DNA of 64,000 nucleotides. Origin: Escherichia coli. GTDB lineage: Bacteria > Pseudomonadota > Gammaproteobacteria > Enterobacterales > Enterobacteriaceae. Numbering within the stretch: the first letter of the stretch is position 1; each line of letters starts with the position of its first letter. Below, one piece after another: positions 10,938 to 14,377 of this stretch. The notes beneath the pieces were generated by a model that worked only from the letters and a program-made list of their open reading frames with translations, did no database searches and was not told where the DNA came from. The DNA is taken from assembly GCF_024223415.1 (NCBI RefSeq), contig NZ_CP100500.1. The stretch is one strand, 5' to 3'. The position numbers and the translations under genes are program-made.

Positions 10938-11424
10938 GTGTGCCGTAGGCACAAAGATGCAAAACGGGACGTTTTGCATGTAATAAGCATAAGCTTGTGA
11001 AGAGATGGTGGCAGGCCCACCGGGATCTGCTGTCGGAAGTCGGTCCCAAACAACCCCGGCTGCTGTGGTAAAGAGCCAAGGTAGTGAGCGCAGGGGGAAC
11101 GATCAGACGAGATCTGATCCTGTGTGAGATACAGTGAGATGAGTAAACCCGAACCTGTGTTGAAACGTCGTTAGTCCTAAGTGACATCAAAACCGGAGGT
11201 TTCGTGATACCGCCTGGATTAATTTACGGGTGAATTCCGAATGCTGCGTAAATGGTGTCCGGCGTATAGCAGGCATGACGCTGTATCAGGCTCTTTGCAG
11301 GAACTACGGGAACCAGTCGTCGCAATGTCAAGAGAGAAATACAAATAACCGAAATTATGAGTATGAGAGTATCGATGTGCGAAACCGGGGCAGAGCTGTT
11401 CGTAGTAGTGAGGAAGCGTTTGTA

Positions 11425-12725
11425 ATGAATGTGGAGCGAAGGGGCAACGTCGGGCAGTCTGCATCACAGCCCAACTGTAAACAGGAGGAGGCTGCGGGTG
11501 AACAGACAAAACCGTTTCAGGTCAGTAAATTGCATGTGGTGGAAGCGTACCGTCGGGTAAAGGCGAATGCCGGAGCTGCCGGAGTGGATAACCAGACGCT
11601 GAAAGATTTTGAGCGGGATCTGAAAGGAAATCTGTACAAAATCTGGAACAGGTTATCGTCGGGAAGCTGGATGCCGCCGCCAGTGCGTGCGGTGGAAATT
11701 CCGAAGAAGGATGGCAGTAAAAGGCTTTTAGGAATACCGACAGTAAGCGATCGAATAGCGCAGATGACGGTGCTGGTAACGTTTGAACCATTAGTGGAGC
11801 GTTATTTCCTGAATGATTCATACGGATACCGGCATGGAAAATCAGCGCTGGATGCAATAGCAGTTACCAGAAAACGTTGCTGGCAATACGACTGGTGTCT
11901 TGAGTTTGATATTAAAGGGTTATTCGATAATATCCCCCACGATTTATTACTCAGGGCAGTGGATAAACATTGCGCGGATAAATGGGTAAGACTGTATATT
12001 CGCAGGTGGCTGACAGCGCCGGTGCAGATGCCGGATGGAACACTGAAGGAAAGAAATAAAGGTACGCCACAGGGTGGAGTCATCAGTCCGGTACTGGCGA
12101 ATTTATTTCTGCACTATGTGTTTGATAAATGGCTGTCGTTACATTATCCGGAAATTCCCTGGTGTCGTTATGCAGATGATGGATTAATTCATTGTGGCAG
12201 TAAACAACAGGCAGAGGAATTACTGAATAAACTGGCAAAACGTTTTCAGGAATGTGGACTGGAATTACATCCGGAGAAAACGAAAATAGTTTACTGCAAA
12301 GACAGCTAACGACAGGCGAACCACGAAACAGTGCAGTTTGATTTTCTGGGTTATACGTTCAGGGCGAGAAGAGCACGTAATCAGCGAAGTGGAAATCTCT
12401 TTACGAGTTTCAGTCCGGCGGTGAGTAACAGTGCGCAGAAAGGCATGATCGAAAAACTCAGGAAACTGCGGCTCAGACGCAGGGTGGAGATGAGTCTCGA
12501 AGATATTGCGAAAAGGCTGAATCCGATGATATCGGGGTGGCTGAATTATTACGCGAAATACCACAAAGATATATTAATCTGACGCTGATTGCGTGGGCGA
12601 GAAAGAAATATAAAACCCTGCGGTATAGAAAGACGAAGGCGTGTCAGCTAATGGAAAGGCTGTCAAAAGAGAAGCCGGAGTTGTTTGCCCACTGGAATGC
12701 AGGACCGGAAAGCGCGTTTGCCTGA
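11425..12725 (+). pseudogene. Group II intron reverse transcriptase/maturase (IEP), disrupted by an in-frame TAA and a frameshift
   Basis: RT motifs (AGAAGVDNQTL..., GTPQGGVISPVLANLFL, RYADDGLI = YADD box) and X/maturase motifs (FDFLGYTF, ISGWLNYY); TAA at 12307-12309 interrupts the frame; C-terminal segment (12537..12725) is in a different frame; start could alternatively be the upstream ATG at 11230. Confidence 0.75.
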
Positions 12726-12728
12726 CGG

Positions 12729-12762
12729 GAGCCGTATGAAGCGAGAGTTTCACGTACGGTTC
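12729..12762 (+). ncRNA. Group II intron domain V (catalytic hairpin)
   Basis: gagccgtatgaagcgagagtttcacgtacggttc: 10-bp lower stem with AGC triad at positions 2-4, 2-nt bulge on the 3' strand, 4-bp upper stem, GNRA (GAGA) tetraloop; 4 nt after the IEP stop. Confidence 0.7.
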
Positions 12763-12945
12763 TGCGAGAGGCTGTCGGGGAGGTTCCGGTGGCCTACTCA
12801 CTTAACGCTGCTTTTTTGTACTAAATAATTCGCATTTTATGTTTAAAAATTGAGATATTCCCCATTACCTAAAGCTGTTTTTTATTGCTTATACATGATC
12901 AAATACTCCTTACATAATTAAGGAGAACAAAATGGAATTAAAAAA

Positions 12946-14067
12946 TTGATGGAACATATTTCTGTTATCCCCGATTACAGACAAGCCTGGAAAGTGGAAC
13001 ATAAATTATCGGATATTCTACTGTTGACTATTTGTGCCGTTATTTCTGGTGCAGAAGGTTGGGAAGATATAGAGGATTTTGGGGAAACACATCTCGATTT
13101 TTTGAAGCAATATGGTGATTTTGAAAATGGTATTCCTGTTCACGATACCATTGCCAGAGTTGTATCCTGTATCAGTCCTGCAAAATTTCACGAGTGCTTT
13201 ATTAACTGGATGCGTGACTGCCATTCTTCAGATGATAAAGACGTCATTGCAATTGATGGAATAACGCTCCGGCACTCTTATGATAAGAGTCGTCGCAGGG
13301 GAGCGATTCATGTCATTAGTGCGTTCTCAACAATGCACAGTCTGGTCCTCGGACAGATCAGGACGGATGAGAAATCTAATGAGATTACAGCTATTCCTGA
13401 ACTTCTTAACATGATGGATATTAAAGGAAAAATCATCACAACTGATGCGATGGGTTGCCAGAAAGATATTGCAGAAAAGATACAAAAACAGGGAGGGGAT
13501 TATTTATTCGCTGTAAAGGGAAATCAGGGGCGACTAAATAAAGCCTTTGAGGAAAAATTCCCGCTGAAAGAATTAAATAATCCAGAGCATGACAGTTACG
13601 CAATCAGTGAAAAGAGTCACGGCAGAGAAGAAATCCGTCTTCATATTGTTTACGATGTCCCTGATGAACTTATTGATTTCACGTTTGAATGGAAAGGGCT
13701 GAAGAAATTATGCGTGGCAGTCTCCTTTCGGTCCATAATAGCAGAACAAAAGAAAGAGCCAAAAATGACGGTCAGATATTATATCAGTTCTGCTGATTTA
13801 ACCGCAGAGAAGTTCGCCACAGCAATCCGAAACCACTGGCACGTGGAGAATAAGCTGCACTGGCGTCTGGACGTGGTAATGAATGAAGACGACTGCAAAA
13901 TAAGAAGAGGAAATGCAGCAGAATTATTTTCAGGGATACGGCACATTGCTATTAATATTTTGACGAATGATAAGGTATTCAAGGCAGGGTTAAGACGTAA
14001 GATGCGAAAAGCAGCCATGGACAGAAACTATCTGGCGTCAGTCCTTGCGGGGAGCGGGCTTTCGTAA
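12946..14067 (+). CDS. ydcC: H-repeat-associated protein (ISAs1-family transposase), Rhs-linked
   Basis: ORF 12946..14067 (373 aa as called from a TTG; next codon is ATG) with DDE-type transposase sequence; an upstream ATG at 12932 with AGGAG RBS (12921-12925) is out of frame because of a 6-A run at 12940-12945. Confidence 0.85.
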
Positions 14068-14377
14068 TCTTGCCCTGGTTCGTTGAGTTTTTCTGCATTG
14101 CCGGTAATTTTTGCATCTTCTTTGTCCGTGGCTTGTTTCAGCGTCTATAATGGGCGTTAATAAATTGGCAAGTCGGGAACTTGATGTTTTCTTAATGGTA
14201 TGTAGGCAGAAGAATATGTTCTGCAAGTTGACGATTTGTTGGTGCTTTATTTAAAAGGGTGTAGTGCAAATATCTACAATTTCAAGTAGGCATTATTGTC
14301 GTAAAAACGCATCACCGGACATACGACATTCACAATGTGTGTTAATTTTACTGACATCTTTCAAAAGGAGCACAATC

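Follow-up and report, generated by a model that had tools for sequence, protein, structure and literature searches.

The ydcC locus and its H-repeat element

The window, i.e., the whole 64-kb stretch of Escherichia coli DNA that was analysed, carries the ydcC copy of an H-repeat (H-rpt) element, an assignment that follows from homology and from the neighbouring genes. Over about 1.3 kb, the DNA shows 96–98% identity to thousands of copies whose annotation is 'ydcC' or 'ISAs1-like element ISEc1 family transposase', and the RefSeq name of the orthologue is 'ydcC: ISAs1 family transposase'. Pfam matches were obtained to PF13808 (DDE_Tnp_1_assoc; residues 2–88, E = 8e-34) and PF01609 (DDE_Tnp_1; residues 96–337, E = 3e-29), each scoring past its curated cut-off. 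On its upstream side the gene has Rhs remnants and a degraded group II intron, and pptA-yddH-nhoA follow downstream. Homologues of H-rpt were found in 5,356 of the 5,426 complete E. coli genomes, with a median of five copies per genome; a search for a second copy within the 64-kb window found none.

The limits of the element were taken from matches at non-ydcC loci (query positions 34–1322, corresponding to 12813–14101). The left limit lies at about 12813, and the right limit is placed at 14077 by comparison with the intact paralogue L009, which neighbours the other Rhs element, and at 14101 by comparison with other copies. No convincing terminal inverted repeats were found at these homology limits, the left of which adjoins the group II intron. 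The intron spans 11007–12802, with a match to RF01999 (D1–D4) at 11007–11122 and domain V/VI at its 3' end, which leaves a gap of about 10 nt to where homology with H-rpt begins on the left. Its ltrA gene is split into several ORFs; the orthologous ltrA is flagged by RefSeq as frameshifted with an internal stop, and an intact ltrA is present at the same site in MFDS1022581 (L004). Further variation was seen around the locus: an IS256 fragment follows ydcC in L004, IS1414 replaces yddH in NCTC9112, and the ydcC-pptA spacer is about 212 bp shorter in Combat11I9, ZF8-1 and DSM 103246 (L010, L013 and L023, ~2800–2887, equivalent to ~14079–14290 of the window) and probably in four more genomes. The features of the locus are compiled in Table 1.

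Table 1. Features at the ydcC locus (positions in the window)
Feature	Position	Strand	Basis and details
Group II intron 3' end (domain V/VI)	12727–12802	+	Rfam RF00029, 62.8 bits; abuts the left end of H-rpt
H-repeat (H-rpt)/ISEc1-like element, ISAs1 family, ydcC locus	12813–14101	+	Limits by homology only
7-bp hairpin CUCCUUA-CAUAAU-UAAGGAG with 6-nt loop	12906–12925	+	Inverted repeat and folding; the 3' arm is the Shine-Dalgarno sequence
Shine-Dalgarno sequence AGGAG	12921–12925	+	6-nt spacer AACAAA, then ancestral ATG at 12932–12934
Remnant of the ancestral start; 5-codon mini-ORF MELKN	12932–12949	+	ATG GAA TTA AAA AAT TGA; TGA at 12947–12949
One-base deletion in codon 3	12937–12939	+	Intact GAA-CTT (or GAA-TTT) against GAA-TT in the window; alignments and paralogue L009
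A6 run	12940–12945	+	Equal length in intact copies (Lys4-Lys5); heptamer A_AAA_AAT (12940–12946) in the frame of ATG 12932
TGATG, in which the mini-ORF stop and the Met7 codon have one base in common	12947–12951	+	Sequence
Transposase body, 372 codons and stop	12949–14067	+	DDE_Tnp_1_assoc and DDE_Tnp_1; lacks only MELKKL
Region with no difference from the intact paralogue next to the other Rhs element; includes the conversion tract	13026–14077	+	Comparison with L009

Reading frames and hairpin of the start region

The long ORF is out of frame with the well-placed ATG at 12932; with TTG 12946 or ATG 12949 as its first codon and its stop at 14065–14067, it gives a product of 373 or 372 aa. The nearest Shine-Dalgarno sequence to ATG 12949 is the AGGAG 23 nt upstream, and none lies at a useful distance. 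For this allele, PGAP places the CDS start at the equivalent of ATG 12949, both in the closely related genome L001 and in the other sampled genomes. In the original prediction, the Shine-Dalgarno sequence, ATG 12932, the early stop after MELKN, the A6 run and the out-of-frame body had all been described, and each was reproduced from the sequence at the same coordinates; the overlap of stop and start in TGATG is an addition to that description. The statement that related proteins begin with MELKKLMEH was borne out by the translation of L009 and by the 378-aa annotations. The AGGAG and ATG 12932 constitute the ancestral H-rpt/ISEc1 start. They are conserved base for base in ~21,400 copies from complete E. 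coli genomes, and this start arrangement is not a chance pattern.

The Shine-Dalgarno sequence is also the 3' arm of a hairpin, for which folding gave −8 kcal/mol, with z scores of −2.85 (56 nt) and −5.1 (24 nt). The same fold was obtained for an intact copy (L003), and the hairpin columns are invariant across all aligned copies, the intact ones included. A promoter-like −10 sequence, CATAAT (12913–18), lies inside the hairpin loop.

Position of the one-base deletion

Start-region alignments and the paralogue L009 revealed that intact copies read ATG GAA CTT AAA AAA TTG ATG GAA CAT (MELKKLMEH) and that they, too, have an A6 run. The base missing from the window falls between 12937 and 12938, immediately 5' of the run, and the 378-aa frame is regained once one base is restored. 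Thus, a one-base frameshift does part the ancestral start from the body, as had been proposed, but the alignments place it in codon 3 and not inside the homopolymer. Nor are seven A residues needed for a MELKK start, as had been assumed; the intact relatives have A6 plus one more base in codon 3. The comparison with other H-rpt copies was run, and A6 was found to be common to the intact copies, which is one half of what the original prediction had itself named as speaking against it.

A rare intact allele has TTT at codon 3 (ATG GAA TTT AAA AAA, MEFKKL); it occurs in four genomes, A12 (L006 2528–2545), EH41, EH53 and NCTC9113, and shares with the window a linked G at 12964. Judged from these alignments, the lost base may be the C of CTT or a T of the rare TTT allele; the A-run would be untouched either way. 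The TT allele could have arisen from TTT by loss of one T; that TTT is a +T revertant of TT appears less likely. Four matches to the TT+A7 query with one mismatch (H92–95) were considered as A7 revertants and were rejected, as inspection revealed them to be TTT+A6 (MEFKKL).

These alignments illustrate that a homopolymer beside a frameshift is not necessarily the site of the frameshift, a question that alignment with intact paralogues settles, and that annotation pipelines mask 5' frameshifts by the choice of a downstream start.

Start contexts in complete genomes

To count the start contexts, 5,426 complete E. coli genomes were searched with 40–41-nt queries, where each 28-nt megablast seed was forced across the site. 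The intact, in-frame context CTT+A6 was found in 5,154 of the 5,426 genomes, with 21,407 places in total. The allele of the window, TT+A6, is present in 21 of the 5,426, once per genome and always in ydcC. A true contraction of the run, CTT+A5, which likewise results in MELKN and a stop within TGATG, was recorded at 221 places in 206 genomes and at several loci; some of these records resemble assembly errors, with 7 places in one genome. These independent A5 alleles are annotated like that of the window.

Runs of seven were counted with queries having 35-nt flanks, which let the seeds fall outside the run. The 41–42-nt A7 queries matched nothing, a result that is uninformative because the DUST filter was calculated to mask A7, and not A6, and thereby to block run-spanning seeds. 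For CTT+A7, one perfect and about three near-perfect matches were obtained, all in 'SCU' assemblies and annotated as a frameshifted pseudogene. For TT+A7, the in-frame form expected from the original prediction, the query with 35-nt flanks had no exact match in the 5,426 complete genomes. Overall, about 99% of the family copies carry A6.

A truncated H-rpt copy of one and the same kind, about 890 nt long and with a 453-nt hypothetical gene behind it, has CTT+A5 in SE11 (L008 1515–1530) and CTT+A7 in SCU-308 (L007 1528–1547). Either the run of a dead copy has genuinely drifted in length, or the SCU-308 assembly has a homopolymer error.

The census bears on three alternatives. A phase-variable switch, in which a reversible A6/A7 change of DNA length toggles the transposase within populations, had been suggested on the grounds of the run; homopolymers are indeed indel-prone, and the A5 and A7 records demonstrate other run lengths elsewhere in the family. 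However, the tract is invariant in the lineage (TT+A6 in 16/16 alleles), TT+A7, the ON state that such a switch predicts, has no exact match in the genomes searched, six bases are short for a contingency tract, and several records with A5 or A7 have the look of assembly artefacts, those with A7 being confined to 'SCU' assemblies. We consider such a switch highly improbable. An error of sequencing or assembly in the window, for which it can be said that single-base indels beside homopolymers are a common error class, is next to negligible, given that 21 complete genomes, assembled independently of one another by different laboratories and on different platforms, have the identical allele.

The third alternative, a programmed frameshift switch, is not upheld by the sequence either. 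A slippery heptamer of the type X_XXZ_ZZN is present in the frame of ATG 12932, in the mutant allele only. No stimulatory RNA structure was found 3' of the run, where the fold of 12947–13030 gave −11.4 kcal/mol (z +0.56), 147 of 200 shuffles being at least as stable. The intact family is a single ORF and the arrangement of two frames is not conserved, the 21,407 intact copies reading the run in frame as Lys-Lys.

Inheritance, gene conversion and constraint

The 32-nt start context was found to be identical in the window and in all 15 genomes sampled from the 21 carriers. Between the window and L001, only 3 differences were counted in about 6 kb of flanks, from which it follows that the allele was inherited vertically within one lineage. 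The deletion is, on this comparative evidence, best described as a fixed, vertically inherited lesion in one E. coli lineage.

The body of the gene has a different history in the window, where it differs by at least 2.3% from each of the 21 carriers. All 31 body differences between the window and L001 fall within 13227–13762, and at these 31 sites the window is set apart from the ydcC alleles of the other 21 genomes as well. This patch is 100% identical to the intact H-rpt copy at the Rhs-nrfB locus of the lineage members NCTC10444 and KV7 (H152, H153). When compared with the paralogue L009, the window has no difference across 13026–14077; differences are confined to 12862–13025 and include the one-base deletion. 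Because the patch is identical to a paralogue and the differences from that paralogue lie outside it, ydcC of the window is concluded to be a gene-conversion chimera whose tract ends short of the lesion. In ZF8-1 (L013), a smaller patch of the same kind was observed at 13634–13762.

For the window and L001, the pairwise dN/dS is 0.12; a reading of this value as a sign of purifying selection was considered and was rejected, as all 31 differences lie in the one paralogue-identical patch; the value is misleadingly low because of gene conversion. More generally, through conversion between H-rpt paralogues a disabled copy can retain an intact appearance, and misleadingly low dN/dS values can result.

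Constraint was assessed on 16 alleles (the window and 15 others), which make up 8 haplotypes. Thirteen body changes are absent from six sampled intact copies, 10 of them nonsynonymous or nonsense and 3 synonymous, a ratio that fits an omega of about 1 (P = 0.72) and not an omega of 0.12 (P about 0.0009); in reading it, one should bear in mind that donors outside the sample may have supplied some changes by conversion (those at 14031, 14055 and 14056, and at 13688–13733 in L013), that dN/dS is inflated by very recent polymorphism, and that selection may not act in place on a resident IS copy, be it intact or not. These 13 events, a small number, show what appears to be relaxed constraint on the body with no visible purifying selection. 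In KV7, ydcC (L011 1670–2788) has the nonsense change G110* (equivalent to 13258 of the window) together with two private amino-acid changes, and it is called a pseudogene by PGAP. Of the 16 alleles, 15 retain an open ORF, and the allele type of the window is not called a pseudogene by PGAP.

Interpretation and possible residual translation

Taken together, the gene is very probably a ydcC H-repeat copy with an inherited deletion in codon 3 that is disabled or strongly attenuated, and not a phase-variable or programmed-frameshift switch. According to this explanation, the loss of one base (CTT or TTT to TT) put the ancestral Shine-Dalgarno sequence and ATG out of frame with the body, and the A6 run is the normal Lys-Lys coding sequence of the family, unchanged in length. 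The allele is fixed in one E. coli lineage, where the body drifts, and in the strain under study, part of the body was overwritten from an intact paralogue by conversion that did not reach the lesion. Any body translation that may be left would most likely proceed via reinitiation at UGAUG after the mini-ORF, yielding a product without MELKKL; −1 slippage on A_AAA_AAU could contribute a far lesser share. Both routes can be understood as by-products of the deletion, for which no evolved purpose needs to be assumed.

The allele is already catalogued: it is found in RefSeq, in 21 complete genomes, and is annotated there from the downstream ATG. A function of the allele is possible, considering the open ORF in most of the alleles and the lack of a pseudogene call.

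If the allele were still functional, ribosomes would start at ATG 12932, terminate at the UGA after MELKN and restart at AUG 12949, making a useful transposase shortened by six N-terminal residues, so that the deletion would be nearly silent. In E. coli, TGATG overlaps have been shown to bring about translational coupling, with termination followed by reinitiation (Huber et al. 2019, PMC6728339), and the mini-ORF has what such a route would use, namely AGGAG, a 6-nt spacer and ATG upstream of the overlap. Both Pfam domains are complete in the Met7 product, starting at its residue 2, and MELKKL lies outside either of them. The ORF left open in nearly all alleles, the Met7 start annotated by PGAP and the independent A5 alleles, which arrive at the same mini-ORF, the same overlap and the same annotation, are also consistent with it. 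However, nonsynonymous and nonsense changes are in excess in the lineage, with a nonsense codon in KV7, and the AGGAG is too remote from ATG 12949 to serve it directly. In addition, H-rpt transposition has never been observed, intact copies included (PMC3032704). Retention of function through reinitiation is, on balance, rather unlikely.

Recoding could, in principle, be a second leak. A −1 slip on A_AAA_AAU (12940–46), or RNA-polymerase slippage adding an A, would yield low levels of the wild-type start MELKKLMEH, and the gene would be throttled by the rate of frameshifting. The motif is a formal X_XXZ_ZZN heptamer in the frame of ATG 12932, and a −1 shift on it reads M-E-L-K-K-L-M-E-H, but it has come into the shifting frame only through the deletion, and the intact copies are devoid of a two-ORF design. 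A6 is also short for transcriptional slippage, and the evolution of the body looks unconstrained. Frameshifting without stimulators is known: among heptamers assayed in E. coli, about 61% exceed a background of roughly 0.055% by 2- to 10-fold (PMC4066793), and compensatory low-level frameshifting at indels is documented (PMC5009743). For the heptamer in ydcC, which has no downstream stimulator, the expected efficiency is below about 0.5%. A transposase supply governed by such recoding is very unlikely.

Reinitiation and slippage may also be combined into a throttled gene, with a 5-codon leader, a shortened transposase made by reinitiation and traces of the wild-type protein made by −1 slippage on A_AAA_AAU. 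We regard this combination as unlikely. Any single-base loss in codons 2–5 leads to MELKN, a stop and TGATG, as the independent A5 alleles illustrate; were the combination true, the start region of the family would be unusually tolerant of −1 indels. The preferred reading, a disabled or strongly attenuated copy, amounts to a frameshift of an ordinary, inherited kind within a resident copy of a well-known IS family, and as such it matters little.

Comparison with known systems

Hairpins that sequester the ribosome-binding site at the ends of some insertion sequences, of the IS10/IS50 type, protect against read-through translation. The conserved 7-bp hairpin of H-rpt, with the Shine-Dalgarno sequence as its 3' arm, resembles these RBS-occluding hairpins.

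With the homopolymer contingency loci of Neisseria, Haemophilus and Campylobacter, the allele shares a homopolymer near the 5' end of the CDS; in contrast to those loci, the tract here is only six bases long and does not vary within the lineage, and the lesion lies outside it. Programmed −1 frameshifting, as in the transposases of the IS3 and IS1 families or in dnaX (A_AAA_AAG), is similar in that an A-rich X_XXZ_ZZN motif stands between an upstream frame and, in the insertion sequences, the transposase frame. The allele differs from these in that it has no conserved two-ORF design and no stimulator, and that the last base of the motif is U and not G. Unlike the IS3 and IS1 families, ISAs1-family transposases are encoded by a single ORF, and it takes the mutant allele to bring the motif into the shifting frame. 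With TGATG-coupled genes (PMC6728339), the allele has in common the 1-nt UGA/AUG overlap and an upstream ORF with a good Shine-Dalgarno sequence, but the upstream 'gene' is an accidental 5-codon remnant of mutation and not a conserved cistron, and the coupling is putative.

The closest relatives are the YdcC/YhhI H-repeat-associated proteins, with which the window shares the locus (Rhs remnant ... ydcC-pptA-yddH-nhoA), the Shine-Dalgarno sequence, the start codon, the A6 run and the two Pfam domains. It differs from them in codon 3, which is short of one base, in the annotated product, which begins at Met7 (372 aa), in the central and 3' part of the gene, which was converted from a paralogue, and in the degraded group II intron at its left end.
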